The translations under genes were made by a program, and so were the position numbers. Below are positions 149 to 30,114 of a stretch of 64,000 nucleotides of DNA, piece by piece (positions within the stretch are counted from its first letter, which is position 1; every line of letters begins with the position of its first letter). The notes under the pieces are model-generated. The model was not told the origin of the DNA, searched no databases, and saw only the letters and a program-made list of their open reading frames with translations. Source of the stretch: Candidatus Omnitrophota bacterium (GTDB lineage: Bacteria; Omnitrophota; Gorgyraeia; Zapsychrales; JAHFFX01); assembly GCA_023247725.1 (NCBI GenBank), contig JAHFFW010000009.1:14424-78423 (forward strand), in the 5' to 3' direction.

Positions 149-2389
149 TTACTGCGGCCGCTTTTCCAGCGTTTCCAGTTCTTTGAGATACTGATGCGTG
201 TTTCTATAATCGCTCTTTATGTCTTCGACTGCAAGAAATTTTTCTTTGGCCGCGGAATATTTTTTGTCCAAGTACAAGACCATGCCTTCTCGGTACATTT
301 TTTCGACGAGTTTTTCGCGTGGGTCATGGGTGGTCGGTGCGGAATTGGGCTCGGACAGGGACGGGGTTTCTTGTTTACTCTGCGGTGAGGATTGCCCACG
401 AGGCAGGGAAGGCTCACGGTTTGTCTCTGGCATCGGCACGGCTGATTCTTCAGATACAGAAGCGGCCGGCTGGGATTTTTTTTCAGCGGCCTTGAGCGCT
501 TGTTCCAAAGTTTGAGAACGCCCTTCCGATTGTTCGGCTTTTTGTTTGCGCCGGGCTTCCTTTTCGGCCATGGCCTTTTGTTTTTGTTCCGCTTTTTTTG
601 CCAAGGCCTGGCGCTTCCTTTGTTTTTCTTTTAAGCCTTTCTCTTTTTGAGCTTGCCTTTCTCTCTGGATGTTTTCTTGCTGAGACTGTCGTTGTGTTTG
701 AGCTTTTTGCCGTAATTCCTCTTCGTGGGCCTTTTTTCGGGCTTCGGCTTTTTCAGCCTGCGCTTTTTGTTTTGACGCCTCTTTCTCGGCTTTGGCTTTT
801 TGCTCAAGTTCGGCCTTTTCAGCCTGCGCTTTCTTTTGGGTTTCGGTCCTTTCGGCCAAAATATGCTCACGCTCTTCTTCTTTTTGCGCCTGTATCTTTT
901 GCCGATTTTCCTCTTGTTGAGCCAAGGTCTTTTGGCGTATTGCTTCTTTTTCCTTCAAAGCCCGCCGGAGAGCTTCTTCTTTTTCGGCCTTAACCTTCTG
1001 CCGTCGTTCTTCTTCCTGGGCGAGGGTCTTCTGGTGAAGCTGTTCTTTCTCAACCAAGGCCTCTTGTCGAATCTTTTCTTTTTTGGCTAATTCTTTTTTC
1101 CGCTGTTCATCTTTCTGAGTTCGGATCTTTTCCTGTCCGGCCATTTGTATCTGACGCAATTTTTCTTTCTCTTGACGGACCTGTTCGCGTTCTTTTTGTT
1201 GATGAGCCAGGAAGCGCGCGCGTTCTTTTTGCCGAGCGGCTTCTGCCTCTTCTTTAAACCGTTTATCTTCTAGTAATTTTTTCTGGCGTTCTGCTTTTTC
1301 CTTTTGCAAGGCCAGGCGCTGTTGTTCGGCTTCCTTGAGTGCAGGGCGTTTCTCCTTGCGCCTGGCTGTCTCTTCGACAAAAAGATTGGGCTGCTTGGCT
1401 CGAATCAGTCCCAGATAGCGCTGCGTCAATTTGTAATCGGGATCATCGGCGCTGACCTGTGCAAATTTCTGTTTGGCTTCGCTATATTTTTCGTGATTAA
1501 AAAGATAAATGGCATAAGCGTATTTGTCTTCCATTTCGTTGCGAATAATCTTTTTGGGAGGAACATCGAATTTCACCTGATCCAATTCTTTAAAAAGATC
1601 AGGCTGTCCCTCCTTCGGTTGCGAGGCGACCGTCGCGGGAGCAGGCTTATCCAATTCCTTGGCAATCCTCTTTAAGTAATCCTCGGTTTTCTGATAGCCC
1701 GGTTGCAATCGTTCAATATCCTCAAAAAGGGCCTGGGCTTTTTTCCAATCCTTCTCTAAAAAAAGGTCCACGGCCGCAGTGTAAAGCTTTTCTAAACCCG
1801 AAGAATAATTTTCCTGCAAATTTTCCCGTTCAGCGGCCAATTCTTGTTTGCGGGCATTGATATCGGCGAGCACAAGTTCTTCGGCTTCGGGTTTTCCCTC
1901 CTCAACCGCAGAATCTGGTTCTGGAGATGTCACGAAAGTCGGATTATCAACGGCCCGTCCTTCCGGAGGAACATTTTGCCCGGTCGTTTGCTTTTCTTCG
2001 CGAACCTGTTTGAGGAATTCCTGCGTGCGATGGTCTGCTTCGGTGGATACGGACTGGGGGGGCTGTTTTTCTTCACTGAATTTCTGCTCGATCCGGGCGA
2101 GGTATTTCCTGGTGGACTTGTATTCCGGAAGCATTTGGTCGGCCTGCAAAAATTTTTCTTTGGCCTCGGCTAAACGATTGGTTTTATAAAGGCTGACCGC
2201 TTCTTGATAAATAGCCTGAACCTCGCGAACCGTATCTTGATTCTGGCCTTTACCCGAAGCAAGGCTATCGGCCACATAGGACCAACTGAGCGGCGCAATG
2301 AACACACTCATGGTCAGAAAAATAACAGTGCTCATCATCTTCCTAAAACTGCTGCGTCGATGGAAAGGCATAAACGGCTCCGAGATCAT
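149..2389 (-). CDS. Secreted K/E/Q-rich coiled-coil protein with about four TPR-like modules (hypothetical)
   Basis: 746-aa ORF. A signal-peptide-like stretch begins at Met18 (MMSTVIFLTMSVFIAPLSWSYVA). Repeated Y..A..LY....Y.EA...F modules resemble TPR. A long KEK/RQK low-complexity coiled-coil core follows. The start could be 2338. Confidence 0.5.
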   Translation of the reverse strand: MISEPFMPFHRRSSFRKMMSTVIFLTMSVFIAPLSWSYVADSLASGKGQNQDTVREVQAIYQEAVSLYKTNRLAEAKEKFLQADQMLPEYKSTRKYLARIEQKFSEEKQPPQSVSTEADHRTQEFLKQVREEKQTTGQNVPPEGRAVDNPTFVTSPEPDSAVEEGKPEAEELVLADINARKQELAAERENLQENYSSGLEKLYTAAVDLFLEKDWKKAQALFEDIERLQPGYQKTEDYLKRIAKELDKPAPATVASQPKEGQPDLFKELDQVKFDVPPKKIIRNEMEDKYAYAIYLFNHEKYSEAKQKFAQVSADDPDYKLTQRYLGLIRAKQPNLFVEETARRKEKRPALKEAEQQRLALQKEKAERQKKLLEDKRFKEEAEAARQKERARFLAHQQKEREQVRQEKEKLRQIQMAGQEKIRTQKDEQRKKELAKKEKIRQEALVEKEQLHQKTLAQEEERRQKVKAEKEEALRRALKEKEAIRQKTLAQQEENRQKIQAQKEEEREHILAERTETQKKAQAEKAELEQKAKAEKEASKQKAQAEKAEARKKAHEEELRQKAQTQRQSQQENIQRERQAQKEKGLKEKQRKRQALAKKAEQKQKAMAEKEARRKQKAEQSEGRSQTLEQALKAAEKKSQPAASVSEESAVPMPETNREPSLPRGQSSPQSKQETPSLSEPNSAPTTHDPREKLVEKMYREGMVLYLDKKYSAAKEKFLAVEDIKSDYRNTHQYLKELETLEKRPQ

Positions 2390-2491: not shown

Positions 2492-3787
2492 TTAAGGATG
2501 TGTGCCTTTGCGGAAACACGCATTCTGAACGCAAATAGGATTTATATGAAAAAGGTAACGATTTTTCGCAATCCAGGCATACACCCAAGGCCCCATCAGG
2601 CCTGTTCCCGGAAAATAAAAAAGGATGATGCAAGGGTAAAGCATGGGCAACAGCAGGGACAATCGGCGGAAGGCAAAAAATCCGCCCGAAAGCCGGCCGT
2701 CGGGTTCAATCAAATACAGCTGACTCGCAGCCTTCGCATGATTCAAATCGGGATGAAGCAAGGTCAAATCTTCCATCGTATGGAAGTCCCTCATCTGTAA
2801 ACGCCCCCAAAGATCCATGATTTCGAGATGCCGGACACTCAGACGGCAAAAATTGCATTGGCCATCAAAAACGACAATGGAGCGTTTGGCCTGGAGGTTC
2901 AATTTCCTTCTGACTTCGATCCTTTCAAGAATTTTTTCCGGATTAATGAATAACAACATCTGCGGAGGAAACAGGAAAAAGAAAATGGCCGGCACATCTA
3001 ACGTCAGCAACAACATCAAATGAAAAATAAATCCCCAGATGATCCCGGAACGCCGAGTCGCCGGAAAAAACAGCAAAAATGGCAGGAGGAATTCCGTGGA
3101 GAAAATAAAAATTCCCGTCCAGTAGCAGAGGGCTGGATGAACCGCCAGAAAATCCCGCAAAAGAAAGTTTTTGGTCGATCCTTCGTCAGGATAAAGCATC
3201 AAATAATAAAGCGGGTTATCTTTGATCCAATTGCCTTCCGGATAAATTTTGTATAAGGCCGTAAAGAAAAACGTCGCGGCCAGCTGAATCTGCAGTAACC
3301 GCTGGATAAAATAGGGTCGAGGAGCCTTATAGGCATTGGGATCACGCCTTCTTAAGGCATCGACGGAGAAATAATCTCCCGGATAAGGCGTCAGGCACAC
3401 CAGAAAGAGCGTCACCAAAAGCAGATCCCAGGCCAAAGACGAGCCAATATAAAAATCATTGAGGGCATAAAAATAAAGTAAGGATCCAAATAATATCCAG
3501 CCGCTTGGCTGGGTGTAGCACCCGAGCAAAAAAAGCAACCAGCTGCAAAAAAGCACGGCCAACATCAAGATGATCAACCAGTCCGGACTTTGATCCACGA
3601 GATTGAGAAAATCCACCGGGAAAAAATTGGCATTGTACGTTTTAAAAGCCCCGTGGAGATAATGTTCGCGAAAATGAAAAAAGGATGGACAGACATGCAA
3701 AAAGGTTGCGACCGCCACGGCAATCCGAAATAAGGATAGGCTCAGTGTCGGGCGTTCCACTAAAAATAGCCGGTGCCAAAGATTCAT
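2492..3787 (-). CDS. HTTM-domain (vitamin K-dependent gamma-carboxylase-like) membrane protein fused to a C-terminal DCC-family (DUF393) thiol-disulfide oxidoreductase domain
   Basis: The N-terminal half is polytopic membrane protein typical of HTTM. The C-terminus carries VVFDGQCNFCRLSV, which is the FDGxCxxC DCC motif. The start was moved to Met13 (MNLWHRL), which gives an ATGA overlap with the upstream gene. The track ORF extends to 3823. Confidence 0.6.
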   Translation of the reverse strand: MNLWHRLFLVERPTLSLSLFRIAVAVATFLHVCPSFFHFREHYLHGAFKTYNANFFPVDFLNLVDQSPDWLIILMLAVLFCSWLLFLLGCYTQPSGWILFGSLLYFYALNDFYIGSSLAWDLLLVTLFLVCLTPYPGDYFSVDALRRRDPNAYKAPRPYFIQRLLQIQLAATFFFTALYKIYPEGNWIKDNPLYYLMLYPDEGSTKNFLLRDFLAVHPALCYWTGIFIFSTEFLLPFLLFFPATRRSGIIWGFIFHLMLLLTLDVPAIFFFLFPPQMLLFINPEKILERIEVRRKLNLQAKRSIVVFDGQCNFCRLSVRHLEIMDLWGRLQMRDFHTMEDLTLLHPDLNHAKAASQLYLIEPDGRLSGGFFAFRRLSLLLPMLYPCIILFYFPGTGLMGPWVYAWIAKNRYLFHINPICVQNACFRKGTHP

Positions 3788-4416
3788 GGAGTCAGGCTTT
3801 CTTTGGGGAAGATTTGCCGGCAACGAAAAATTCCGGCCTCTTCATAAATATGGGGTTGGCGCGAAAGCGATCGGTATCGCCGCAAGGCAACGACAAAATC
3901 ATCAAATTCTGGAAAGCGCCGATCCATCATTCGGCAAAAACTGGGGGCGGTCTCGCGATCGGCAATGGCGCTCAAGACTCCCCGATGGGTATTATCGTAA
4001 AATAAGGTTCGGTTCTGGATGATCTTGTGGGGATTTAATTCATAGAGCTTCAAATCCTTGACCCCATAAACGACAAAGTGGGCAAAGGTGTCATCCAGGT
4101 GCAGAAACATGATAGGCCCGGCCGGCGGGAAAAGGAATTGATTGACCGGCAAATGCGCCGCGGCCCGGGGGAAATGACGCTGGATGAATGGCCGAAGCAG
4201 CATGAGCCGGGTGTTATTATAAAAATAAACGATCAGCCAGATGAGGACGAAGAGGGTGATGAAGCGGTCACGGACAGCCCGGTTGCGGGCAAGATTGACG
4301 ACAACAATGGGGGGAATGGTGAGGGTATAAACCCAGTAAACTGGCAATTTGAAAATCAAAAAAAACCAGCCGAAGAAAAATATGACCCCACCGACATATC
4401 GGGATATAGCACTCAT
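3784..4416 (-). CDS. Hypothetical membrane protein (about 3 N-terminal TM helices plus a soluble domain)
   Basis: 210-aa ORF translationally coupled on both sides by ATGA overlaps at 4413-4416 and 3784-3787. No recognisable family. Confidence 0.45.
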   Translation of the reverse strand: MSAISRYVGGVIFFFGWFFLIFKLPVYWVYTLTIPPIVVVNLARNRAVRDRFITLFVLIWLIVYFYNNTRLMLLRPFIQRHFPRAAAHLPVNQFLFPPAGPIMFLHLDDTFAHFVVYGVKDLKLYELNPHKIIQNRTLFYDNTHRGVLSAIADRETAPSFCRMMDRRFPEFDDFVVALRRYRSLSRQPHIYEEAGIFRCRQIFPKESLTP

Positions 4417-5894
4417 TGATTTTCATCATGCTCCCCAAAAACTTCGGCGGTAAAAATTTCCATGATCGTATTGGGATCCATCCAGGCCTTCGGGGGCAGA
4501 CCGGCTTTTTGCGCACATAAGACCGATAAAAAAGTGGCCTTGTCCCAGCCGGTTTCGGTTGCCACCTGCGGCAAAAATAATCCCTGATGCATCGAGCCCT
4601 GGCTGACAATCACGCCGTGTTTGCCCAATTCAATTTCATCAATCGAATGAATCCGATGCGGAACCGATAAAACCGAGACCTCCACATCGATATCGCTCAG
4701 TTCTTCCTGCTTTAACGGATCAAACCGGGGATCGCGGGTCGCTGCCGAAACCGCCATATCGCGGACCGTCAGATACAAAGGTTCCCTCCCTATCACTTGA
4801 CCGATGCAGCCGCGCAATTCTCCCTTTTTTCTAATCGTCACAAAGGCACCCTGGGTTTTCAATAAAGCATCCTCTTTGGTCTGGAACTCGGGAATTTTCT
4901 GGGAACGGACAAAGGATTCAATTGTCTCGCGGGCGATTTTCAATAACTCCTTCTTTTGTTCAGGGGTCAAGGCGCCGGCCGCCTTTTGATTATTTTCTGC
5001 GGCCGGCGTCGTGGACGGATGGAATATAACAGAACAATATCCGACGACGCGAAATTTATCTCCGGATGTATCGCCAGAATTGCCATATCGCAAAACTTCT
5101 GCTGTCCAATGTCGCCGTTCGGCTAGCGCAAGGGCGGTCGCGACACCCATAAATCCACACATCTCCATTGTCCCGGAGATGTTTCCATTCCAGAATTCTT
5201 CCACGTCTCCCTTTTCAATGGCCTTGAGTGTGCCGGCATCCATGGCGCGAGCCACCGAATCCGGATGGTAATGCGACATATCGGTGGAAATAACCATCAA
5301 GACATCCTTGCGCTCGCCAATGAGTTTATCGAGGGCCAGCGCCAACTCCTCGATCACCTCAGGATTCGGTTGTCCCATCAGAATCGGAACCAATTTAAAA
5401 TCTTTAAAGGTCTGCTGCAGAAAGGGCAATTCCACCTCGAGGGCATGCTCGCGTTCATAAACCTCCGGCTGAAAATGAAAGTTGGGGCTCTCCGCCAGAA
5501 GCCTTTGGGTGAATTCATCGTCGACTGGAACAATCCCCAGCGGGGTTTTGAATCCCCCCTCTTTCCAGACGGAGATCCCGGAAAACGGGAAAAAGTGGCT
5601 AGGCGCAATGACGATGATGGTGGAATACTGGCCAGCGCTCACCGCGCGAAAACTGTAGGCCGCGACCGGCCCGGAATACGGATAACCCGCATGCGGGGCA
5701 ATGACCATCGGTAAAGGCTGTTCCAAAGGCTTTTGACCGGATTGGTCAAAAAATGTTTGGATTTGCTTCACCAGTTCCTTCGGATTATCGTTGTAAAATT
5801 GGCCACTCACGTTTGGTTCTTTGATGAGCGGTTCAGCGTGCGAATAAGAACATGTCCCCATCATCATGGCCCCAACTAAGCAAAGGATTTTCAT
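4413..5894 (-). CDS. Memo-like (AmmeMemoRadiSam system protein B) - AMMECR1 (protein A) fusion with an N-terminal signal peptide
   Basis: Memo motifs VIAPHAGYPYSG and ISTDMSHY are in the N-terminal half. AMMECR1 motifs GAFVTIRKKGELRGCIGQ, RDPRFDP and GKHGVIVSQG..GLFLPQV are in the C-terminal half. The N-terminus MKILCLVGAMMMGTCSYSHA looks like a cleavable signal peptide. Confidence 0.7.
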   Translation of the reverse strand: MKILCLVGAMMMGTCSYSHAEPLIKEPNVSGQFYNDNPKELVKQIQTFFDQSGQKPLEQPLPMVIAPHAGYPYSGPVAAYSFRAVSAGQYSTIIVIAPSHFFPFSGISVWKEGGFKTPLGIVPVDDEFTQRLLAESPNFHFQPEVYEREHALEVELPFLQQTFKDFKLVPILMGQPNPEVIEELALALDKLIGERKDVLMVISTDMSHYHPDSVARAMDAGTLKAIEKGDVEEFWNGNISGTMEMCGFMGVATALALAERRHWTAEVLRYGNSGDTSGDKFRVVGYCSVIFHPSTTPAAENNQKAAGALTPEQKKELLKIARETIESFVRSQKIPEFQTKEDALLKTQGAFVTIRKKGELRGCIGQVIGREPLYLTVRDMAVSAATRDPRFDPLKQEELSDIDVEVSVLSVPHRIHSIDEIELGKHGVIVSQGSMHQGLFLPQVATETGWDKATFLSVLCAQKAGLPPKAWMDPNTIMEIFTAEVFGEHDENQ

Positions 5895-6334
5895 AAGGGT
5901 TGATTGGTTTTTGAAAAATAACGGTCAAGACTAAAAAAGGCCGTCCGCTCAATGCGAATCCGAAGATAAGCGGTGATTGTCCAGAGAATGATGTCCATGA
6001 GGAATGTCACCGGTAGAGGAAAAGACCAGCGGGAACCAAAACATCCGCACTCTTCTAAAGGCAGGCGGCGAATCAATGCCTGTCCGACGATCAAAAGAAA
6101 ACCCAAAATCATGATCAAGACCCCGCGCAGGGTCCATTCCAGCCACAAACCCAGGATGAGAAACACCCCTAAAATCAGTTCGATCCAAGGCATGACCCGG
6201 GCGGCCGACTCCTCCGCAAATGGCGGCAGGATCTGATAATTTTGAATCACATACAAAAAATTCTGATAAGGGAAAAGCAGTTTTTCCCCGCCGGAAGCGA
6301 CAAATAACAAACCCAGCAGGATTCTTAGGATCAC
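5891..6334 (-). CDS. MauE/DoxX-like 4-TM membrane protein with a CGCFG motif
   Basis: 147-aa hydrophobic ORF. It has the conserved EECGCFG motif seen in the MauE (methylamine utilisation) and DoxX-type thiol-redox membrane protein families. ATGA overlap with the downstream gene. Confidence 0.45.
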   Translation of the reverse strand: MILRILLGLLFVASGGEKLLFPYQNFLYVIQNYQILPPFAEESAARVMPWIELILGVFLILGLWLEWTLRGVLIMILGFLLIVGQALIRRLPLEECGCFGSRWSFPLPVTFLMDIILWTITAYLRIRIERTAFFSLDRYFSKTNQPL

Positions 6335-6996
6335 TAAGGCATTGATGGCAATTCTCCCAGACGCGTTTTCAATTCCGATTCCAATGATTTGATCCCGACA
6401 AACATTTGATCGTTAATAAAATAAGTCGGGGTGGACTGAATCCCTAAGGCCACGCCATTCTCTTTTTCGCGAAGAATCACCGATTTGACCTCATCATTGG
6501 TCAGGCATACCTCTAATTTCAGTTTATCCAGCCCGACGGCGGTGCCGATTTCCTGAAAGATGGGATCGGCATTGATGAGCCCCTTCCAATCATTCTGCCG
6601 GGCAATCAGAAGATCATGAAAAGGCCAGAATTTTCCCTGACGGGCGGCGCATTCTGCGTAACGGGCACAAAGCTGGGCGTGTTGATGCCCGTCCAATGGG
6701 AAATATTTCATTTGCAGATAAAGTTTTTTGGGGTAGGCCGCGTAATATTGATTGAGCATGGCGACCCCGCGGGCGCAGGCAGGGCATTGAAAATCGATGT
6801 ACTCGACGATTTTGACCGGGGCATTGGGATCGCCTTTGGTGCGCATCCGACTGACATCTTTGGGTCCTTGGCTTAAATATCCTTTTAAAAGATTGATGAT
6901 GACGATGAGGAGAATGCATAAAATAACGATCAAAACAGTGGTATTTTGTTTCTTTTGAATCGCATTCTTGGCTGGTGGGTTGGAAGCCTTCGGCAT
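6334..6996 (-). CDS. DsbA-like thioredoxin-fold thiol:disulfide oxidoreductase, membrane-anchored
   Basis: N-terminal TM anchor (TTVLIVILCILLIVIINLL). CPAC active site in YIDFQCPACARG. DsbA-like length of 220 aa. First gene of the coupled operon. Confidence 0.65.
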   Translation of the reverse strand: MPKASNPPAKNAIQKKQNTTVLIVILCILLIVIINLLKGYLSQGPKDVSRMRTKGDPNAPVKIVEYIDFQCPACARGVAMLNQYYAAYPKKLYLQMKYFPLDGHQHAQLCARYAECAARQGKFWPFHDLLIARQNDWKGLINADPIFQEIGTAVGLDKLKLEVCLTNDEVKSVILREKENGVALGIQSTPTYFINDQMFVGIKSLESELKTRLGELPSMP

Positions 6997-7210: not shown

Positions 7211-7387
7211 TTAGCGACGATACATATTCATCTTCATCATGGTGTTACCCATCATGCCGCCTTCTTCATTCATCATATTGCCCATTTCTTCATTATTCAT
7301 GTCCCAATCCATATGGGAGGCATGCGAGATGCCTAAGAAACAAAATCCAATAAGCACGGCTGCCGCTAGCGTTAATCCATATTTCAT
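7211..7387 (-). CDS. Unannotated small secreted Met/Asn/Glu-rich peptide (58 aa)
   Basis: Hand translation gives MKYGLTLAAAVLIGFCFLGISHASHMDWDMNNEEMGNMMNEEGGMMGNTMMKMNMYRR*. AGGAGA lies 7 nt upstream of the ATG. A signal peptide and probable ...SHA cleavage site are present. The mature part has 11 Met in about 35 residues. A His-rich plus-strand ORF in the track is its antisense shadow. Confidence 0.5.
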   Translation of the reverse strand: MKYGLTLAAAVLIGFCFLGISHASHMDWDMNNEEMGNMMNEEGGMMGNTMMKMNMYRR

Positions 7388-24569: not shown

Positions 24570-25868
24570 TCAGGTTCGTGGTGGAAAAGGCCGTACGATC
24601 AAGCGAATTCCCTTATCATAACTCAAATAACTAAAAACCCAATTCACAAAGGTCACGACCCGGTTGCGAAATCCCACCAGTGTCATCAAATGAACAAACA
24701 CCCAAATAAACCAGCCCAGGATTCCTTGAAATTTCACAAAAGGCAAATCCACGACGGCCTGATTGCGCCCAACGGTGGCCATGACCCCCAAATAGTGAAA
24801 ATGAAAAGGGTTCAAGGATTCGTTATTCAACAAATGCTGGAGATTGCGAGCGAGGTTAGTTCCCTGCTGGATAGCCACCGGGGCTAACATGGGAAATCCG
24901 TGGGGATGGTCTTTGGTTTGCATGGCGGCCACATCGCCGATGGCAAAAATATCTTCATATCCTTGCACCCGACTGTATTCGTCGACGTGAATCCGGTTAT
25001 TCTTGTCCAAAACCTCGGGATTTAAACCCGCGATAGCGGCTCCCATGACTCCCGCCGCCCAAATCACCGAGCGGGTGGGAATTTGTTTGCCACCATCCAG
25101 GGTGAGGGTGAATCCGTCATAAAGAGCGACCTTGGTGTTGAGCCAGATATTGACATCAAACTTCTGTAAAAAATTCATGGCGCCTTTGGATGCCTCTTGC
25201 GACATGGTCGGCAATAAACGCTGGGCCGCATCGATGATATGGATCTGCATCTTGTCGAGATCCAATTCCGGATAATCCGCAGGAAGGATATGATTTTTTA
25301 ATTCCCCCAAGGCTCCGGCCATCTCCACGCCGGTTGGCCCCCCTCCGACGACCACAAAAGTCATGAGACTTTGGCGCTCTTTAAGATCCGTCGCCAGGAT
25401 CGCCGCCTCAAAATTTTGCAGCATCAGGCTGCGCAAATCCAACGCCTCCGTCAACGATTTCATTGACATCGCGTATTTCTTTACATCCTCCATTCCCAGA
25501 TAATTAGTTTTCGAGCCCATGGCCAAGACCAAATAATCATAAGGAATCTTGCCGATGGAGGTTTCCACGGTCTTTTGCGCAGGATCAATTTTGATCACCT
25601 CGGCCATGCGAAAAAACAGATTTTTTTGATGCTTGAAGATTTTGCGCAAAGGAAACGCAATCGAATCAGGCTCTAATCCAGCGGTCGCGACCTGGTACAA
25701 CAAGGGTTGAAAGGTATGGTAATTATTCTTATCAATCAAAACGATCTGCAGTTCGGCCTGCTTGAGCGATTTGATGAGGTGCATGCCGGCGAAACCTCCG
25801 CCGATGACAACCAGGCGGGGTTTATTCGTGGTGGGGATGTTAACGGATAAGGATAATGGAATCATCAT
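24570..25868 (-). CDS. ndh: Type II NADH:quinone oxidoreductase (NDH-2)
   Basis: RLVVIGGGFAG Rossmann motif, QPLLYQVA, and a second GGGPTGVE dinucleotide motif. The start was moved to Met25 (MMIPLS) to remove the overlap with TerC. Confidence 0.75.
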   Translation of the reverse strand: MMIPLSLSVNIPTTNKPRLVVIGGGFAGMHLIKSLKQAELQIVLIDKNNYHTFQPLLYQVATAGLEPDSIAFPLRKIFKHQKNLFFRMAEVIKIDPAQKTVETSIGKIPYDYLVLAMGSKTNYLGMEDVKKYAMSMKSLTEALDLRSLMLQNFEAAILATDLKERQSLMTFVVVGGGPTGVEMAGALGELKNHILPADYPELDLDKMQIHIIDAAQRLLPTMSQEASKGAMNFLQKFDVNIWLNTKVALYDGFTLTLDGGKQIPTRSVIWAAGVMGAAIAGLNPEVLDKNNRIHVDEYSRVQGYEDIFAIGDVAAMQTKDHPHGFPMLAPVAIQQGTNLARNLQHLLNNESLNPFHFHYLGVMATVGRNQAVVDLPFVKFQGILGWFIWVFVHLMTLVGFRNRVVTFVNWVFSYLSYDKGIRLIVRPFPPRT

Positions 25869-25893
25869 TTTGAAAACTGAATTTTTTCGATTT

Positions 25894-26826
25894 TCAATCT
25901 TGGGAAGCTTTTTTAAGCGGAAACCAAAAAGAGGCCGCAATGGATAAGGCCAGGATCGCTGACACGGTTATCAAGGTAACAACGGCGGGAACGTGAACGA
26001 CCCGATCCAACAGCATCTTGCCACCAATCAAAACTAAGATCAAAGACAAACCATAATTGAGATAATGAAATTTATCCATGATCGCCGCCAAGACGAAATA
26101 CAGCGCCCGCAGTCCCAAAATGGCAAAGCAGTTGGAACTGTAAACAATGAAGGGATCGCGCGTGACCGCGAGGATGGCCGGTATCGAATCCACGGCGAAG
26201 ACCACATCCACCACATCGAGGACAAAAAGCGCAACAAATAAAGGCGTCACCCACCAATGGCCATGCCGGAACACAAAATACCGTCCGCCCTCGTAATCGG
26301 CGCTGATGGGAACAAACTTGCGGAACAATTTGAGAACTGGATTTCGCTCTGGTTCAAACTGCTTCTCTTTTTCAAGCAACATTTTGATGCCGGTCACCAA
26401 TAAAAATAAGCCGAAAACATAGATCATCCAGTGGAATTTGGCGATAAGGGCGATCCCCATGACAATGAACAGCCCGCGGACTAAAAAGGCCCCAAAAATT
26501 CCCCAGAAAAGGACGCTGTGCTGCTGTTCGGCCGGCACTTTGAAATAATTGATGACCAAAAGAAAGACAAACAAATTGTCCATGCTCAAAGAACGTTCGA
26601 TGAGATACCCGGTAAAAAAATTGAAGGCCCTCTCCGGTCCGCTGAAGACATAAATTCCCGCATTGAAAACCAGGGCCACGACCGTCCAAATGACACTCCA
26701 GATGATTGATTCCTTTAAGCCAATCTTGTGCGCCTTGCGGTTGAATACGCATAAATCCAGATACAGCATGACCAGGATGGATGCGATAAAGATGCCCCAC
26801 AAAAACGCCGGGCTTATGGGATTCAT
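25894..26826 (-). CDS. TerC-family integral membrane protein
   Basis: 310 aa. Has the SLSMDNLFVFLLV and DSIPAI TerC signatures. Confidence 0.75.
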   Translation of the reverse strand: MNPISPAFLWGIFIASILVMLYLDLCVFNRKAHKIGLKESIIWSVIWTVVALVFNAGIYVFSGPERAFNFFTGYLIERSLSMDNLFVFLLVINYFKVPAEQQHSVLFWGIFGAFLVRGLFIVMGIALIAKFHWMIYVFGLFLLVTGIKMLLEKEKQFEPERNPVLKLFRKFVPISADYEGGRYFVFRHGHWWVTPLFVALFVLDVVDVVFAVDSIPAILAVTRDPFIVYSSNCFAILGLRALYFVLAAIMDKFHYLNYGLSLILVLIGGKMLLDRVVHVPAVVTLITVSAILALSIAASFWFPLKKASQD

Positions 26827-26950
26827 TTTGCTCCATGGCGTGAAGCGTCGTTCGGCAAGAGTGAAGCATCAACACGAAATACGCTTCACGAGCGACGAAC
26901 GAAAAAAGTCATGATTAAAATCTATAGTCTTTCACTGTGACAATAGCCCG
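26827..26950 (-). promoter_or_regulatory. TerC 5' leader with three mutually exclusive complementary repeats (candidate riboswitch/attenuator)
   Basis: On the mRNA strand: CGUGAAGCGU ... GAUGCUUCAC ... ACGCUUCACG, then GGAG and the ATG. Copy 1 can pair with either copy 2 or copy 3. Confidence 0.3.
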
Positions 26951-27550
26951 CTAGCGCTTATTAATCGACTCTCCCTCAATGATCCCACCGGAGATGACGA
27001 CTTTTAACGCCTCCTCGACACTCCAGCCCGTATCACGGACTAATTTTTCCTCAACCAAAATAATAAATCCCGACATGGGAGAAGGGGTTGTGGGGATGAG
27101 GACCTTGAGCCACTTCTTATTGAGAGTATGATCAACGGTCTCGCCGGTGATGAATCCAATAAGCCAAATATCATTTTTAAAGCACTCAATCATCACCACT
27201 TTTTTGAAAGGCTGACGGTCTTGCACGGAAAATGTTTCGGAAAGCTGTTTCCCAACCTGGTAGGTTGTTTTGACCAACGGAATAATTTTGGCGATATTTT
27301 CTAAGAGGTTAAAGAATTGCCGCCCGATATAGTTGCTGGCCAAAAAGCCAATGAGGCACAAAACGACCAGAACCAGCAGAAGACCCAAGCCCGGAATGCG
27401 GTAGCCGATATATTCACTCAAAAAATCTGCGATGCGTTTATCAATATAGACGTAGATAAACCGCACGGCAAAAAAGGAAAGGGCCAAGGGAATAATGGCC
27501 AAAAGACCGCGGAAGATGTAGGTCCGAAGGATGTTAAAAAATTCTTTCAT
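26951..27550 (-). CDS. DUF502-family membrane protein
   Basis: 199 aa. Two N-terminal TM helices and a conserved ..PTTPSPMSGFIILV.. segment. Confidence 0.5.
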   Translation of the reverse strand: MKEFFNILRTYIFRGLLAIIPLALSFFAVRFIYVYIDKRIADFLSEYIGYRIPGLGLLLVLVVLCLIGFLASNYIGRQFFNLLENIAKIIPLVKTTYQVGKQLSETFSVQDRQPFKKVVMIECFKNDIWLIGFITGETVDHTLNKKWLKVLIPTTPSPMSGFIILVEEKLVRDTGWSVEEALKVVISGGIIEGESINKR

Positions 27551-27639
27551 GGGATTGTCCTTTTCGCAGATTTTTTAAGGTCGCTATGTGGGATTAGGAT
27601 ATCATTAAATGCCCTATCGCGGAAGAAACTTTGAAAGAG

Positions 27640-27680
27640 AAAAAGCGAGGGCCGCCCCGCCAAAGGCGAGGCGGCCCGTC
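27640..27680 (-). terminator. Rho-independent terminator after yceI-like gene
   Basis: Stem gggccgcc / ggcggccc. On the minus strand it is followed by CGCUUUUUCUCU. Confidence 0.4.
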
Positions 27681-27710
27681 CCTTTTCGCCGTCGCTTAAT
27701 ATTTCGAAAA

Positions 27711-28313
27711 CTATTTTTTATCCGCCTCAATACTGACTTGGATTAAAACCACGTCGTCAACAAGCAAACCTCCATTGTCCATCTGTTTATTAAAAGAGAC
27801 TCCAAAATCCTGACGATTGATGGCCCCATCAGCTTCAATCCCAATGACGGTTCCCCCCATCGGGCTCTTCACCGGGCCCGAAACCTGACCAAAAAGAGTC
27901 GTGGTCTTCGTCACATTCTTGATCGTTAAATCACCGGTCATTGCAATGCCATCGCCCTGTTTGACAAATTTAACGTTCTTAAAAGTGATCTCGGGGAATT
28001 TTTCGACCTCCAAAAAATCCGCACTTTTTAAGTGTTCATCCCTTTTTTCGTTGCGCGTGTTGATACTGGGGGTTTTCACAACAATATCCGCCGTGGATGC
28101 CTTTAAATCATCCGGGTCATACGTGATCGTTCCCTGGTAATCGGTGAATTCCCCTTTGGTGGTACTCACCATCATGTGTTTGACCGCAAAACCAATCCTT
28201 GAATGCACCGCATCAATCTGATAGGTTTCGGCACAAAACGCCAGCGGGCTACCTAAGACAAAAGATCCCGCCAATACGAACAACGCCCAAAATCCTTTAA
28301 GCTGTTTCTGCAT
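27711..28313 (-). CDS. YceI-family periplasmic polyisoprenoid-binding protein
   Basis: Signal peptide. YQIDAVHSRIGFAVKHMMVSTTKGEF and the C-terminal block are YceI-like. AAGGAGG RBS. Confidence 0.75.
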   Translation of the reverse strand: MQKQLKGFWALFVLAGSFVLGSPLAFCAETYQIDAVHSRIGFAVKHMMVSTTKGEFTDYQGTITYDPDDLKASTADIVVKTPSINTRNEKRDEHLKSADFLEVEKFPEITFKNVKFVKQGDGIAMTGDLTIKNVTKTTTLFGQVSGPVKSPMGGTVIGIEADGAINRQDFGVSFNKQMDNGGLLVDDVVLIQVSIEADKK

Positions 28314-28329
28314 CAGTTCCTCCTTTTGG

Positions 28330-28494
28330 TTATGATTTTACAAAAACTCTGATGACCCAAACAATCCCCACCATGATGACCAATGATAGACCCATGATCT
28401 TCGTCCAAAGGAAAATCCGTCCCGATGTCGCCGAAAATTCCGGACCACTCCCGACGATTGAATTGAATCTTCCCGGAAAAGAACTGGCGCCCAT
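28330..28494 (-). CDS. Unannotated 54-aa small protein with a C-terminal TM helix, upstream of yceI
   Basis: MGASSFPGRFNSIVGSGPEFSATSGRIFLWTKIMGLSLVIMVGIVWVIRVFVKS*. GGAGG lies 6 nt upstream of the ATG. The stop is 16 nt before the yceI ATG, and that gap is yceI's own SD (AAGGAGG). Confidence 0.4.
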   Translation of the reverse strand: MGASSFPGRFNSIVGSGPEFSATSGRIFLWTKIMGLSLVIMVGIVWVIRVFVKS

Positions 28495-28554
28495 AGAATT
28501 CCTCCAATTGATGCGGCAGCCCCGATCCTCTAAAACGAAAATTGATTCATTCTC

Positions 28555-30114
28555 TTACTTCAATAAAGCAAAGAGGATCAAACCATAAGCAAAATACAAA
28601 AGGAAAACTCCTCTTTCGTTTGCGCCACTCCGGGCAATGTAGCAAAAATTCAAACCCGCGAACAAAAAGGCAAACCAGGTCAAGGCCAGATGAGCATAAT
28701 GCGGGACAAGAAAAACCGCCGTCAGAACATAGCCTAAGGCCACGAGGCCGCCAATCAGATTCCTGGCATCTTTTTCTCCCAGAAGCACCGGCAAGGTGAC
28801 AACTCCGGTCGCAGCATCTCCCTCGATGTCTTTAAGATCTTTGATGCTTTCCCCCAGACAGATAATGATAAAAATAAGCAAGGCCACGGTAGCGTTAATC
28901 GTCAAAACCGATCCTGGAGGCGAGAAGGCCACCTGCCCCAGAACAAAGACTAACATGGCTTCCAGACCCAGAATGAGCATGGAAGAAAACAAATTTTTCT
29001 TGAGCCGCAAGGGCGGCGCGGAATAAATAAAGGCCAAGGCGACCAAAAAGACAATCACCATAAAACATGCGTCCGAGACCCAAAGAGCAAAGGCTAAGGC
29101 CAAAGCCAAGAATATAGATCCGATCAAAAAATATTCTTGCCTTTCCATCGCCGCGGACACCAGCGGTCGACGGGTATTCGTCATTTTATCGCCGGCCACA
29201 TCAAACAGATCATTGACCACGACCGCATGTTGGAAGGCAAAAAAAATGGCGGTGAGCATCGCGCCTATTTTAAAAAGAATAAAAAGATCCTGAAAGCTTA
29301 CCGCCGGAACCGCGAGCCTTAAACCCAACAGCGCCATGAGCACGTAATGGACCGAGCGCTCCCAGCGCAAATTCCCGACGATCGCGCGAAACTTATGCGA
29401 ATCGTATCGCCAATACCACATGGCGCAAAGCCCAGTCAGGCTAAAAAGCTGGGTGATCACAATGACCGATTCATCCATCGTCGCTCCCACGGGCCCTTTG
29501 AGGAAGAGCTTCAATACTGGATAAACCAGGCCATTAAAGGCATTGATGATGAATGCAGGCAGGGCTCCGTAAGCAAAGATGAGGAGAAAGATACACAAGG
29601 CCCCTAATACCGCGCGAACCAAACGACCGGTTTTCACGACGATATAAATGAAAGAAAGAATGGTAATGATGGCGACTTCCAACCGCTGACTGATCGGAAT
29701 ATCGGGGGCGGAATAAAACGGATTAAAAAAATTTAAAAATTTTACCCCCGGATTTTCAAAGACATAATTGTAATTGGTCGGTGTTCCGCGCAACGCTGGG
29801 ATCAAATCCACCAGAATCGGCACGAGGATGACCAGAAAGCCAATGAGGCAGGTTCGCGACAGCGCCGCCACTCCGGTCGCAGAGAAGAAATGCAAAATCA
29901 GGATCACTCCCAAAAGGACCGACAGAAAAAGAACGGGGACATGCACAAGATCAAAGGCCGTGATATCCGGAAACTTTCCGTAATCAATGAGGCTTTCGAG
30001 GCTATTGCGGATAAAAATAATCGAAAGAGCCGTGGCCATCCAAAGGCCGAAACCAATGGGCAGTTTTTCGGTGGACAGAATGAATGTGGCAAACTTTTGG
30101 TGCATAGGGCTCAC
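28555..30114 (-). CDS. UbiA-family prenyltransferase with about 250-aa N-terminal membrane extension
   Basis: The C-terminal half has the UbiA Asp-rich motif (NDLFDVAGDKMTNTRRPL). The N-terminal half is an extra polytopic domain. Confidence 0.6.
   Translation of the reverse strand: MSPMHQKFATFILSTEKLPIGFGLWMATALSIIFIRNSLESLIDYGKFPDITAFDLVHVPVLFLSVLLGVILILHFFSATGVAALSRTCLIGFLVILVPILVDLIPALRGTPTNYNYVFENPGVKFLNFFNPFYSAPDIPISQRLEVAIITILSFIYIVVKTGRLVRAVLGALCIFLLIFAYGALPAFIINAFNGLVYPVLKLFLKGPVGATMDESVIVITQLFSLTGLCAMWYWRYDSHKFRAIVGNLRWERSVHYVLMALLGLRLAVPAVSFQDLFILFKIGAMLTAIFFAFQHAVVVNDLFDVAGDKMTNTRRPLVSAAMERQEYFLIGSIFLALALAFALWVSDACFMVIVFLVALAFIYSAPPLRLKKNLFSSMLILGLEAMLVFVLGQVAFSPPGSVLTINATVALLIFIIICLGESIKDLKDIEGDAATGVVTLPVLLGEKDARNLIGGLVALGYVLTAVFLVPHYAHLALTWFAFLFAGLNFCYIARSGANERGVFLLYFAYGLILFALLK

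Follow-up and report, generated by a model that had tools for sequence, protein, structure and literature searches.

Memo and AMMECR1 occur in conserved form in organisms ranging from bacteria to humans. MEMO1 has links to the motility of cancer cells and to metal homeostasis, and AMMECR1 to an X-linked syndrome. To our knowledge neither protein has a known biochemical reaction, and the only functional lead so far is a genomic link to one family of radical SAM enzymes, TIGR04337, which together with protein A (AMMECR1, TIGR04335) and protein B (Memo, TIGR04336) makes up the AmmeMemoRadiSam system. Human MEMO1 (PDB 3BCZ, 7KQ8, 7L5C, 7M8H) is a stand-alone, cytosolic protein without an AMMECR1 fusion, in which H49, H81 and C244 serve as Fe or Cu ligands (PMC11081632), and no enzymatic activity has been reported for it (PMC11081632; PMC9477392).

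Two further systems are relevant to the locus described here. MauE proteins with a CXC-F-G signature have been shown to replace DsbB, the Caldithrix and Desulfatibacillum proteins being the only ones for which oxidation of DsbA has been demonstrated, and MauE has been proposed as a generalist DsbB replacement that would be second in frequency among such pathways in bacteria (bioRxiv 10.64898/2026.03.05.709764). HTTM-DCC1 proteins, together with an adjacent small transmembrane (TM) protein, have been predicted with AF3 to form a complex like the vitamin-K-dependent carboxylase GGCX (bioRxiv 10.64898/2026.08.19.745780).

The window analysed here, the whole 64-kb stretch of DNA from a Candidatus Omnitrophota bacterium, contains a gene that resembles the AmmeMemoRadiSam A and B proteins in scoring far above the cut-offs of both families and in retaining all of their family-wide conserved residues. 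It differs from that system in that A and B are fused, the product carries a predicted signal peptide, TIGR04337 is absent from the window and the neighbouring genes encode a DsbA-like protein, MauE, an orphan membrane protein (U210) and an HTTM-DCC1 protein.

Results

Pfam and NCBIfam agree with the earlier note on this DNA that proteins B and A form one 493-residue polypeptide, and in that order (Table 1). The Memo half matches TIGR04336 at 283.5 bits (cut-off 26), residues 25–291 covering profile positions 1–270, and PF01875 at 209.7 bits (cut-off 27); the AMMECR1 half, which also aligns with the archaeal AMMECR1 structures 1zq7, 1vaj and 1wsc, matches TIGR04335 at 176 bits (cut-off 99) and PF01871 at 183.5 bits (cut-off 25). 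The residues that are invariant across 35 diverse fusions are all held by the protein (H68, H100, H150, E153, D205, H208, C363, D388, R390 and C460), as is the near-invariant C246 of the C246-G247 pair (99–100% conserved). Two of the conserved cysteines lie in the AMMECR1 half, C363 within ELRGCIGQ, where it is the fully conserved cysteine of the LRGCIG motif, and C460, which is 90–100% conserved. Alignment with human MEMO1, which spans only residues 25–209 (E ~1e-16), equates H68 with H49, H100 with H81, D205 with D189 and H208 with H192. By its position C246 would correspond to C244 of MEMO1, the pairwise alignment ending at residue 209. The two proteins belong to the same fold family, and the metal triad H68/H100/C246 is intact. 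The same three cysteines are conserved in exported and cytoplasmic forms of Memo/AMMECR1, and a comparison between the two revealed no extra conserved structural cysteine pairs in the exported ones.

Table 1. Features of the Memo-AMMECR1 locus, with positions in the 64-kb window.
Feature	Position	Strand	Basis
Memo-AMMECR1 (AmmeMemoRadiSam B-A) fusion	4413..5894	-	ORF with ATG start, 493 aa; Pfam and NCBIfam
Memo domain, aa 26–289	5028..5819	-	Pfam, E 6e-62
AMMECR1 domain, aa 318–486	4437..4943	-	Pfam, E 3e-54
Predicted Sec-type signal peptide, aa 1–20, MKILCLVGAMMMGTCSYSHA, predicted cleavage after SHA	5835..5894	-	n-h-c layout, homologues
MauE/DoxX membrane protein, 147 aa, C96-G-C98-F-G motif	5891..6334	-	Pfam MauE (PF07291), 77 bits, cut-off 27
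DsbA-like thioredoxin-fold oxidoreductase, 220 aa	6334..6996	-	Thioredoxin_4 (PF13462), 80.7 bits; DSBA (PF01323), 54.6 bits
U210, orphan membrane protein, 2–3 TM helices and ~110-aa domain	3784..4416	-	ORF
HTTM fused to DCC1-like oxidoreductase, 431 aa	2492..3787	-	HTTM (PF05090), DCC1-like (PF04134)
Accessory secreted Met-rich peptide, 58 aa, 21% Met, upstream of DsbA-like gene	7211..7387	-	Translation
Exported TPR/Lys-Glu-rich protein, 746 aa, downstream	149..2389	-	Weak TPR_2 match

The N-terminus, MKILCLVGAMMMGTCSYSHA followed by EP, stands before position 1 of the Memo profile (residue 26) and can be parsed as MK, ILCLVGAMMMGTC and SYSHA ahead of E, that is, a lysine n-region, a hydrophobic core of about 13 residues and S-x-A at −3/−1. 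Signal peptides were called by rule, requiring a positive n-region, an h-region of 7–15 hydrophobic residues, small neutral residues at −3/−1 and a location ahead of the first domain. The N-terminus holds no 19-residue TM segment, and the core is too short to be a TM helix. Among the 120 closest homologues the n-h-c layout is kept in 88 despite sequence drift, with K/R conserved at positions 2–3, and in 87 leaders the small −3/−1 site lies no more than six residues from the mature motif (I/V)K(E/Q)PNV. About 30 of the 120 have been called with shorter N-termini (for example MVFSTRSWGD...), but these begin inside the conserved leader and so look like mis-called starts. In the window the ATG of the fusion overlaps the stop codon of the upstream MauE gene as ATGA, which favours this start over an internal one at Met10–12. 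The sequence-level tests thus all support the signal-peptide-like N-terminus that the earlier note had described. A lipoprotein (SPase II) signal was considered for MGTC at residues 12–15 and rejected, this motif having threonine at −1 and methionine at −3; its cysteine is not conserved in clade relatives. Lipoboxes are present in many distant fusions. Genes for LpxK, Kdo transferase, lipid A acyltransferase, OmpA, TamB and LpoB in the window indicate a diderm envelope and therefore a periplasm, to which the fusion is predicted from the sequence features of its N-terminus to be exported by the Sec pathway, its leader probably being cleaved by signal peptidase I.

The fusion gene occupies the middle of an envelope operon whose genes are coupled in translation; the junctions comprise three ATGA overlaps and one overlap of 1 nt, the latter between the DsbA-like stop and the MauE start. 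The DsbA-like protein has an N-terminal membrane anchor (TM 19–37) and a CPAC motif at 71–74. MauE carries its cysteines in ECGCFGS, and GGEKLL in TM1 supplies a glutamate and a lysine that may correspond to the published conserved pair; we predict MauE to be a quinone-coupled DsbB analogue. Downstream of the fusion, U210 has ATGA overlaps at both ends, its stop overlapping the start of the HTTM-DCC1 gene. Neither Pfam nor NCBIfam gives a match to U210, even with the threshold relaxed to E ≤ 10, and only seven clusters of homologues were found; two cysteines of its ~110-residue domain, C161 and C199, are invariant in the homologue alignment. U210 shows no tie to DUF5819, the partner in bacterial HTTM-DCC1/DUF5819 pairs: sequence similarity was not detected, and a fold search with the AF2 model of U210 (pLDDT 63.9) returned no match. 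A small unannotated gene occupies the same position in L004–L006, L090 and L091, and U210 is a possible partner of HTTM-DCC1.

The HTTM-DCC1 protein matches the HTTM profile at 40.2 bits (cut-off 27.7) and the DCC1-like profile at 63.5 bits (cut-off 27.8), and the CNFC of the DCC1-like domain lies at 311–314. Comparison of its HTTM domain with the GGCX chains of the PDB gave no sequence alignment. The motif Y179-K180...G185-N186-W187 is invariant in four orthologues and may correspond to the region around the catalytic lysine of GGCX. Two genes at the margins are less firmly placed. The Met-rich peptide, for which genes are called in L001, L002 and L004, has in L004 a counterpart of the same composition, signal peptide and position and is absent from L005–L007. 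The 746-residue TPR protein is possibly associated with the operon: a homologue follows HTTM-DCC1 in L006 and L090, and a segment resembling it, a match that may be partly compositional, lies inside a 783-residue DCC1-like protein of L004, which matches the window HTTM-DCC1 at 6e-155 and carries only the DCC1-like Pfam label.

Beyond the Pfam matches, the thiol-redox operon that the earlier note had placed around the fusion is corroborated by conservation in relatives. The window clade is a derived Omnitrophota clade represented by eight independent genomic contexts (L001, L004–L007, L090–L092), is monophyletic in an NJ tree and is nested beside radical-SAM-linked clades. All eight contexts keep the DsbA-MauE-fusion order, with the DsbA-like gene conserved and MauE adjoining the fusion in each; the triad stays together across 52–63% identity while the gene upstream of it varies (PEPCK or GH77). 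HTTM-DCC1 is present in seven of the eight, that is, besides the window in L004–L006 and L090–L092. In the sister cluster (L010–L012, L087–L089; Omnitrophota/Planctomycetota) the order is TIGR04337, fusion and DsbD_2, then RsmE and a MiaB-like gene; there both the TIGR04337 protein and the fusion, which is 43–46% identical to that of the window, bear leaders. As DsbD_2 follows a leader-bearing fusion in this sister cluster, a membrane thiol-redox protein appears as a recurring companion of exported fusions.

The absence of a radical SAM gene from the window, which the earlier note had reported, was confirmed by all of the searches made: none of the real ORFs of at least 100 residues contains a CxxxCxxC motif, neither tblastn nor a profile built from 37 TIGR04337 proteins detects TIGR04337, and none of the 47 principal ORFs matches PF04055. 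The note had reasoned that its reading would be contradicted if relatives had a radical SAM partner in this operon context. None lies within about 10 kb in any of the eight contexts with the DsbA-MauE operon, and only the sister clade, in its different context, has one.

The factual basis of the earlier interpretation (fusion, leader, lack of a radical SAM gene in the window and thiol-redox operon) therefore stands, but its premise that such a fusion is exceptional does not. When representatives clustered at 50% identity were considered, 123 of the best 150 matches, from many phyla, were fusions with a hydrophobic or lipobox leader. Nor does export go with the lack of a radical SAM partner, since in species-representative genomes of many phyla 34 leader-bearing fusions have TIGR04337 adjacent or within 6 kb, a number that three further Omnitrophota loci raise to 37. 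Most fused, leader-bearing relatives thus adjoin a TIGR04337 gene, and a signal peptide does not imply its loss. The linkage is variable: TIGR04337 lies 1–6 kb away rather than adjacent in 14 leader-bearing loci, it is not seen in 13 leader-bearing loci whose flanks extend 5 kb or more, and the close relatives L008, L009 and L022 have solo fusions. The radical SAM protein has a Tat-like or Sec-like leader of its own in 28 of the 37 loci, while six leader-bearing fusions are paired with a leaderless one (for example in Prevotella, L050, L051 and L076).

Many TIGR04337 proteins seem to carry twin-arginine leaders. If confirmed, these would imply a radical SAM enzyme at work outside the cytoplasm, where we know of no supply of SAM.

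Discussion

We place the fusion of the window in an extensive branch of the AmmeMemoRadiSam A/B family whose members are predicted to be exported and which has so far attracted little attention. Neither fusion nor export is its unusual part; what sets it apart is specific to its clade, in which DsbA-MauE and U210 with HTTM-DCC1 take the place of radical SAM and DsbD_2 as neighbours. On balance we favour the view that the protein is a Sec-exported periplasmic metalloenzyme within a quinone-coupled thiol-redox operon module. Because the His-His-Cys site, the LRGCIG cysteine and the second cysteine of the AMMECR1 half are all kept, export would expose three functional thiols and a metal capable of redox chemistry to an oxidizing compartment. 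The membrane-anchored DsbA-like protein (CPAC) and MauE (CGCFG) would form a DsbA/DsbB-like pair that passes electrons, presumably in this direction, from periplasmic thiols to the quinone pool, and may in doing so set or recycle the balance of thiols and disulfides in the fusion enzyme or in the envelope substrate on which it acts. The NDH-2, UbiA and YceI genes of the window make the presence of a quinone pool plausible. U210 and HTTM-DCC1 recall the vitamin-K-dependent carboxylase, an enzyme that uses quinol, and include a CxxC domain of their own. The sister clade may be read as a mirror image, in which DsbD_2 would serve as the conduit for reductant alongside a radical SAM enzyme that bears a leader. 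We infer that the fusion is functionally coupled to DsbA-MauE and may operate independently of a radical SAM enzyme. We know of no biochemical function for any Memo/AMMECR1 system, and the substrate and chemistry are therefore conjectural; an envelope lipid, an isoprenoid-quinone or a protein side chain would be our guess.

With the sister cluster the locus of the window shares an exported fusion, the same conserved residues and a membrane thiol-redox protein alongside, the difference being that the neighbours are of the oxidative type here (DsbA-MauE, with HTTM-DCC1) and there a radical SAM enzyme and the reductive-type DsbD_2. MauD and MauE act in methylamine dehydrogenase maturation. As in the MauE pathway (bioRxiv 10.64898/2026.03.05.709764), a MauE with CXC-F-G adjoins a DsbA-like CxxC protein, but in contrast to that pathway, to DsbA-DsbB/VKOR and to MauD-MauE, the pair is here translationally coupled to one exported enzyme and a GGCX-like protein. 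The HTTM-DCC1 protein agrees with that of the GGCX-like complex (bioRxiv 10.64898/2026.08.19.745780) in architecture and size (431 versus 447 aa) and in having a small TM gene immediately upstream, although for this gene, U210, no similarity to DUF5819 was detected. A quinone-coupled thiol oxidoreductase in the same operon recalls the vertebrate vitamin K cycle of GGCX and VKOR.

The strongest alternative, a serious one to which we nevertheless give less than even weight, is that all three components of the canonical system are present but not linked, the fusion still being partnered by a TIGR04337 enzyme encoded elsewhere in the genome. That enzyme could be a cytoplasmic maturase acting before Sec export, much as anSME is the maturase for periplasmic sulfatases, or could act after its own export, and the DsbA-MauE/HTTM neighbourhood would then say little about mechanism. 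The loci in which TIGR04337 is displaced by 1–6 kb or not visible, and the solo fusions of close relatives, show the kind of loose linkage this would entail, and the leader-bearing fusions paired with leaderless radical SAM proteins fit a cytoplasmic maturase with an exported client. TIGR04337 is moreover abundant in Omnitrophota, and the fusion keeps every residue that is conserved in radical-SAM-linked versions. Against this stand the lack of TIGR04337 in the window and around the operon in the eight clade contexts and the finding that the inspected Omnitrophota radical SAM genes each adjoin a sister-type fusion of their own. In addition, no contig, as judged by length, is common to the best 120 Omnitrophota-type TIGR04337 clusters and the best 120 fusion matches of the window clade, the latter including contigs of 414–466 kb, although this is a weak test, each set comprising the top matches only.

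It is somewhat less probable, though still a reading to be reckoned with, that the DsbA-like/MauE pair is housekeeping machinery for oxidative folding and merely syntenic with the fusion, which would be one more periplasmic protein. The proposed generalist role of MauE would suit this, as would the lack of a DsbB or VKOR gene among the window ORFs scanned and the absence from exported fusions of an extra conserved cysteine pair that would mark special DsbA clients. Simple synteny, however, sits poorly with the ATGA overlap between MauE and the fusion, and with a triad that remains intact in all eight contexts while its upstream gene changes. The sister clade, in pairing its fusion with a different thiol-redox membrane protein, suggests that exported fusions specifically need a redox partner.

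A role of the operon in periplasmic Cu or Fe handling or protection seems improbable to us. The Memo half would here bind Cu(I)/Fe(II) rather than convert a substrate, the Met-rich peptide would buffer Cu(I) and the Dsb-type proteins would repair thiols mis-oxidized by copper. CusF, PcoE and CopC bind Cu(I) through Met-rich motifs, and Scs/DsbC-type systems offer protection from copper; the secreted peptide directly upstream, with its compositional counterpart in L004, and the intact triad, at which MEMO1 binds Fe and Cu, are consistent with such a function. Yet the peptide is missing from L005–L007, no copper ATPase, multicopper oxidase or CusCBA-type gene occurs among the window ORFs scanned, and such a role would account neither for the AMMECR1 half nor for the linkage to radical SAM genes in the family at large. 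Finally, that the N-terminus is an incidental hydrophobic stretch or lies upstream of a true start at Met10–12, the protein being cytoplasmic like the classical A and B proteins, is very unlikely: the h-region is weaker than in relatives (mean hydropathy ~2.6 versus 3.0–3.6), three in-frame Met codons are present and some homologues have been called short, but the leader is conserved in full in most homologues, the ATGA coupling fixes the upstream ATG and each of the four operon partners is a membrane protein or faces the periplasm.

Within the favoured reading of an exported metalloenzyme in a quinone-coupled redox module, a bolder proposal, which we advance as a long shot, is that the radical SAM and DsbD_2 half has been functionally replaced in the window clade by a bacterial ‘vitamin K cycle’. 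With the help of quinol (and O2), a GGCX-like HTTM-DCC1/U210 complex would carry out C-H activation on a shared envelope substrate, standing in for the 5'-deoxyadenosyl radical, and the MauE/DsbA-like pair would act as VKOR and thioredoxin, regenerating the quinone species and exchanging thiol-disulfide equivalents with the Memo-AMMECR1 enzyme. If true, Memo-AMMECR1 would be a catalytic module that accepts one or the other of two unrelated C-H-activating partners, and an isoprenoid-quinone, lipid or protein-side-chain substrate would be expected across the family, including human MEMO1 and AMMECR1.

For the family as a whole, the window and its relatives indicate that the fused A/B enzyme is very often exported, that DsbD_2 or DsbA-MauE recurrently accompanies exported fusions as a membrane thiol-redox conduit, and that one clade has lost its radical SAM neighbour and gained a predicted quinone-linked DsbB analogue together with a protein resembling the vitamin K carboxylase. 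The frequent export, the thiol-redox companions and the exchange of partners in this clade together point to the cell envelope as the likely site of action and implicate the three conserved cysteines in redox turnover, and they provide small operons that can be expressed as functional tests.

The fusion protein and its leader

The reading frame described in the earlier note is real, lies on the minus strand and has the domain order B then A that had been claimed for it: in Pfam a Memo domain (residues 26-289, E = 6e-62) precedes an AMMECR1 domain (residues 318-486, E = 3e-54), while NCBIfam gives matches to TIGR04336, AmmeMemoRadiSam protein B (283.5 bits, cutoff 26), and TIGR04335, protein A (176 bits, cutoff 99). 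By these profiles the two halves belong to the A and B families, and the three-gene AmmeMemoRadiSam set is incomplete at the window locus. Alignment places H49, H81, H131, D189 and H192 of human MEMO1 at H68, H100, H150, D205 and H208 of the fusion. Crystal structures and mutants identify H49, H81 and C244 of MEMO1 as Fe or Cu ligands (PMC11081632), and the place corresponding to C244 is held in the fusion by the C246-G247 pair, nearly invariant in the family. The AMMECR1 half, to which the archaeal structures 1zq7, 1vaj and 1wsc align, retains the LRGCIG cysteine C363 as well as C460. All three cysteines (C246, C363 and C460) are conserved at 90-100% across 121 leader-bearing and 15 leaderless fusions, and comparison of these two sets revealed no extra conserved cysteine pair specific to the exported forms. 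With three conserved thiols and a metal site that is redox-active, the fusion would, in an oxidising compartment, have an obvious need of a thiol-redox partner.

The leader combines a Lys-containing n-region, a hydrophobic core that at about 13 residues is too short to score as a transmembrane helix, and an S-x-A end followed by Glu. These n-h-c features and the retention of the leader in homologues support the signal peptide proposed earlier, as far as sequence can tell. A lipoprotein reading of the MGTC in the leader was rejected, the lipobox being poor and its Cys not conserved. Genes in the window for enzymes of lipid A and Kdo, and for OmpA, TamB and LpoB, show that the cell is diderm.

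Leader-bearing fusions and their radical SAM partners

The premise that the fusion and its leader are exceptional did not survive comparison. The best 120 homologues in a collection of 5.8 billion proteins are all fusions (467-547 aa), several of them bearing the name Candidatus Omnitrophica; a leader of the form MKRIILLLMVLMAFSTQSWG then DMIKEPNVAGGFY is present in 88, and the shorter homologues start within the leader and resemble mis-called starts. A small -3/-1 pair lies six residues or fewer from the conserved mature motif in 87 leaders. In a filter-free search of 50%-identity cluster representatives, 123 of the best 150 matches (38-53% identity) are fusions with an N-terminal hydrophobic leader, which a hydropathy and lipobox heuristic divides into 52 of lipobox and 71 of signal peptidase I/anchor type; the Memo domain stands right at the N-terminus in only 15. 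Leaders so common among homologues and representatives point to exported Memo-AMMECR1 fusions as a large multi-phylum family, in which the fusion and leader of the window are not unusual. Memo-AMMECR1 systems are reportedly the subject of a 2019 JBC paper by Burroughs and colleagues, its abstract said to tie Memo to nucleotide-base and isoprenoid modification. Our search of the AMMECR1, Memo and radical SAM literature gave incidental mentions only, and nothing that it covered describes Memo-AMMECR1 export, TIGR04337 proteins with Tat leaders or the DsbA-MauE/HTTM-DCC1 context; that key comparative work lay outside its coverage, and a prior description is possible.

The window itself does lack a radical SAM gene, as the earlier note had seen: the CxxxCxxC motif is absent from every genuine ORF of at least 100 aa, TIGR04337, the dedicated radical SAM partner, gave no match by tblastn or by an HMM from 37 bona fide partners, and PF04055 matched none of the 47 principal ORFs. 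The implied link from an exported fusion to this absence is nonetheless contradicted by a neighbourhood survey of species-representative genomes, in which 80 loci with fusions span Omnitrophota, Planctomycetota, Desulfobacterota, Nitrospirota, Bacteroidota, Acidobacteriota, Zixibacteria and others. For 20 leader-bearing fusions the distance to a radical SAM ORF bearing the motif S(I/L)ATAGCNLxCxxCQNW(E/Q)ISQ is at most 300 bp, and for 14 more it is at most 6 kb; all nine such ORFs scanned against NCBIfam are TIGR04337 (321-395 bits, cutoff 220), and the Omnitrophota loci L087-L089 raise the number of leader-bearing fusions with a TIGR04337 neighbour to 37. Since leader-bearing fusions so often adjoin TIGR04337, a leader on the fusion does not predict radical SAM loss.

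The leaders of these 37 partners are twin-arginine-like in 21, Sec-like or anchor-like in 7 and another extension in 3, the remaining 6 being leaderless; for the three leaderless fusions with a TIGR04337 partner, none of the partners has a leader. The Tat-like motifs include SRREFLRK, SRRNFLRN, DRRTFIKI and PRRQFLKM, with KR variants in Bacteroidota. Read at face value, such leaders imply that a folded radical SAM enzyme would be exported to the periplasm, where we know of no SAM supply. In the TIGR04337 proteins of Omnitrophota and Planctomycetota the leaders lack RR and are Sec-like or of lipobox type, such as MKNFFKLILGLFFLFGLIAAC..., and 117 of the best 120 TIGR04337 matches have a hydrophobic leader, 50 of them with a lipobox-like motif. 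It would be very strange for Sec to export a radical SAM enzyme with its Fe-S cluster; alternatively, the segment may anchor the N-terminus in the membrane, in an uncertain orientation.

The operon, its spread and its origin

The proposal that the fusion sits in a thiol-redox operon is borne out by the DsbA-like, MauE and HTTM-DCC1 genes packed round it. The five minus-strand genes meet at one 1-nt overlap and three ATGA overlaps. The principal ORFs of the window (1-64000) all share the minus strand, a run of one orientation that is unusually long; any plus-strand ORF that reaches 150 aa overlaps a longer gene on the minus strand. A promoter and terminator scan found sites no more numerous than in shuffled sequence; an apparent terminator at 7024-7003 was rejected, since it is the Shine-Dalgarno stretch that serves the DsbA-like gene.

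Coordinates of the features discussed, in the window or at other loci (L numbers)
Feature	Location	Strand	Remarks
Fusion ORF	4413..5894	-	ATG start, 493 aa
Fusion leader	first 20 residues	-	MKILCLVGAMMMGTCSYSHA; ahead of first Memo profile position
DsbA-like gene	6334..6996	-	
MauE/DoxX gene	5891..6334	-	
U210	3784..4416	-	unannotated 210-aa membrane protein
HTTM-DCC1 gene	2492..3787	-	
TPR/Lys-Glu protein	149..2389	-	746 aa, predicted exported, TPR-like ends
Met-rich peptide	7211..7387	-	58 aa, signal peptide and Met-rich tail, 21% Met; SHMDWDMNNEEMGNMMNEEGGMMGNTMMKMNMYRR
Quinone/isoprenoid-related gene run	24570-30114	-	NDH-2 24570-25940; TerC; DUF502; YceI 27711-28313; UbiA 28555-30114
Tat-like-leader TIGR04337	L025:8620-9873, L035:4447-5586, L067:8552-9832, L070, L077:4322-5485, L081:8857-9957, others		outside window
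Sec-like/lipobox-leader TIGR04337	L010:1543-2643, L012:1459-2538, L016:8779-9909, L087-L089:8001-9212; P0278-P0397		
Solo leader-bearing fusions	L008:1445-2959, L009:9896-11488, L022:9983-11467		RsmE, then MiaB-like gene directly after

Eight independent contexts (L001, L004, L005, L006, L007, L090, L091 and L092), at 52-63% identity, share the order DsbA-MauE-fusion; HTTM-DCC1 comes next in seven of them, and none of the eight has a Radical_SAM gene within about 10 kb. Among 86 loci searched, partner-protein profiles match beside the fusion in L001-L007 only. At the HTTM-DCC1 position of L004 (12016-14367) lies a 783-aa protein that matches the window HTTM-DCC1 at 6e-155, has only the DCC1-like Pfam label and contains a segment matching the 746-aa TPR/Lys-Glu protein of the window. 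The latter, in the middle of which about 300 residues of low complexity, rich in Lys, Glu and Gln, look like coiled coil, has much longer or shorter versions 3' of the operon in relatives (1368 aa in L006, 447 aa in L090). A large Thioredox_DsbH/Thioredoxin_7 protein is encoded a few kb downstream in L004 (14733-17225) and L090 (15110-17233), so that further thiol-redox genes cluster at the locus.

In a neighbour-joining tree of 80 fusions the window clade is a single group, and its neighbours are the solo fusions L008, L009 and L022, near which no radical SAM, DsbD_2 or DsbA-MauE gene was found, and a clade (L010-L012/L087-L089) whose fusion, itself leader-bearing, has a TIGR04337 gene with a leader before it and a gene for the membrane protein DsbD_2 after it. 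Solo exported fusions thus occur among the closest outgroups. This placement makes the window arrangement derived: the neighbourhood has lost radical SAM and DsbD_2 and acquired DsbA-MauE and HTTM-DCC1. The recurrent companions, DsbD_2 or DsbA-MauE, fit the expected need of the fusion for a thiol-redox partner. The sister arrangement is itself a second conserved Omnitrophota cluster (L087:8001-13291, L088, L089, L010-L012), which continues after DsbD_2 (PF13386) with RsmE and a MiaB-like gene and is preceded by genes for type II secretion and pilins.

Partner proteins and a proposed pathway

The DsbA-like protein has an N-terminal anchor at 19-37 and a CPAC motif, and the window MauE presents E-C96-G-C98-F-G-S. 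MauE proteins from two phyla replace DsbB in E. coli through an active site of CXC then a conserved Phe-Gly, and are predicted to dock quinone (bioRxiv 10.64898/2026.03.05.709764). In the light of this preprint and the matching motif, the best reading of the pair is that it generates disulfides in the manner of DsbA/DsbB, coupled to quinone. NDH-2, an NADH:quinone oxidoreductase, a UbiA prenyltransferase (519 aa, with a long N-terminal extension) and the polyisoprenoid-binding YceI, all encoded in the window, make a quinone pool plausible.

HTTM-DCC1, a 431-aa membrane protein, contains both of the Pfam domains in its name as well as CNFC. A 447-aa HTTM-DCC1 and a neighbouring small DUF5819 protein have been predicted to form a complex like GGCX, the vitamin-K-dependent carboxylase, with menaquinol in its pocket (bioRxiv 10.64898/2026.08.19.745780); the window protein, when compared with PDB sequences, did not align to GGCX. 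U210 occupies the same gene position beside HTTM-DCC1 as DUF5819, always wedged between it and the fusion, and sequence and fold searches found no link to DUF5819 or to any fold, nor is there a Pfam or NCBIfam match. It has transmembrane helices and a domain with two invariant cysteines, C161 and C199, and belongs to an orphan family that has the invariant motifs FLFPPAG.IMF and DN.HR.VL and forms no more than 7 clusters among 5.8 billion proteins.

We propose that the fusion would be exported by Sec and, once in the periplasm, act on a substrate of the envelope. The translationally coupled DsbA-like/MauE pair would swap thiol-disulfide equivalents with the fusion or its substrate and pass electrons to quinone, while U210 and HTTM-DCC1 would together make up a membrane enzyme of this pathway that uses quinol. 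Taken as a whole, we judge this model to stand slightly better than even. The gene anatomy, the motifs, their conservation and the polarity of the tree are observed; export, the coupling, the way the electrons flow, the substrate and any independence from a radical SAM enzyme are inferred.

Alternative explanations

The competing explanations are not mutually exclusive. A TIGR04337 gene may lie unlinked elsewhere in the genome, possibly encoding a cytoplasmic maturase that acts before export, as the six leader-bearing fusions paired with a leaderless partner would suggest; no contig is common to the fusion and TIGR04337 matches among the matches listed, a weak and indirect comparison. We hold this to be a serious contender that falls short of probable. 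The DsbA-MauE pair could instead be housekeeping and merely syntenic with the fusion, MauE having been argued to be a generalist and the second most common bacterial disulfide-forming protein (bioRxiv 10.64898/2026.03.05.709764); the gene 5' of DsbA-MauE-fusion varies among the eight contexts (PEPCK or GH77 glycosidase), and we consider this reading unlikely. A role of the operon in periplasmic copper or iron handling is more doubtful still: the secreted Met-rich peptide, which may be a Cu(I) binder, recurs in L004 (8476-8685) with like composition and position, and is absent from L005-L007, for which reason it was also rejected as a substrate peptide and core part of the system. That the fusion is cytoplasmic and made from an internal start at Met10-12 is very hard to credit, because the MauE stop and fusion start codons overlap as ATGA, which favours the upstream ATG.

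The exchange of partners, together with a thiol-redox companion that keeps recurring, provides concrete leads on the long-unsolved Memo/AMMECR1 pair.
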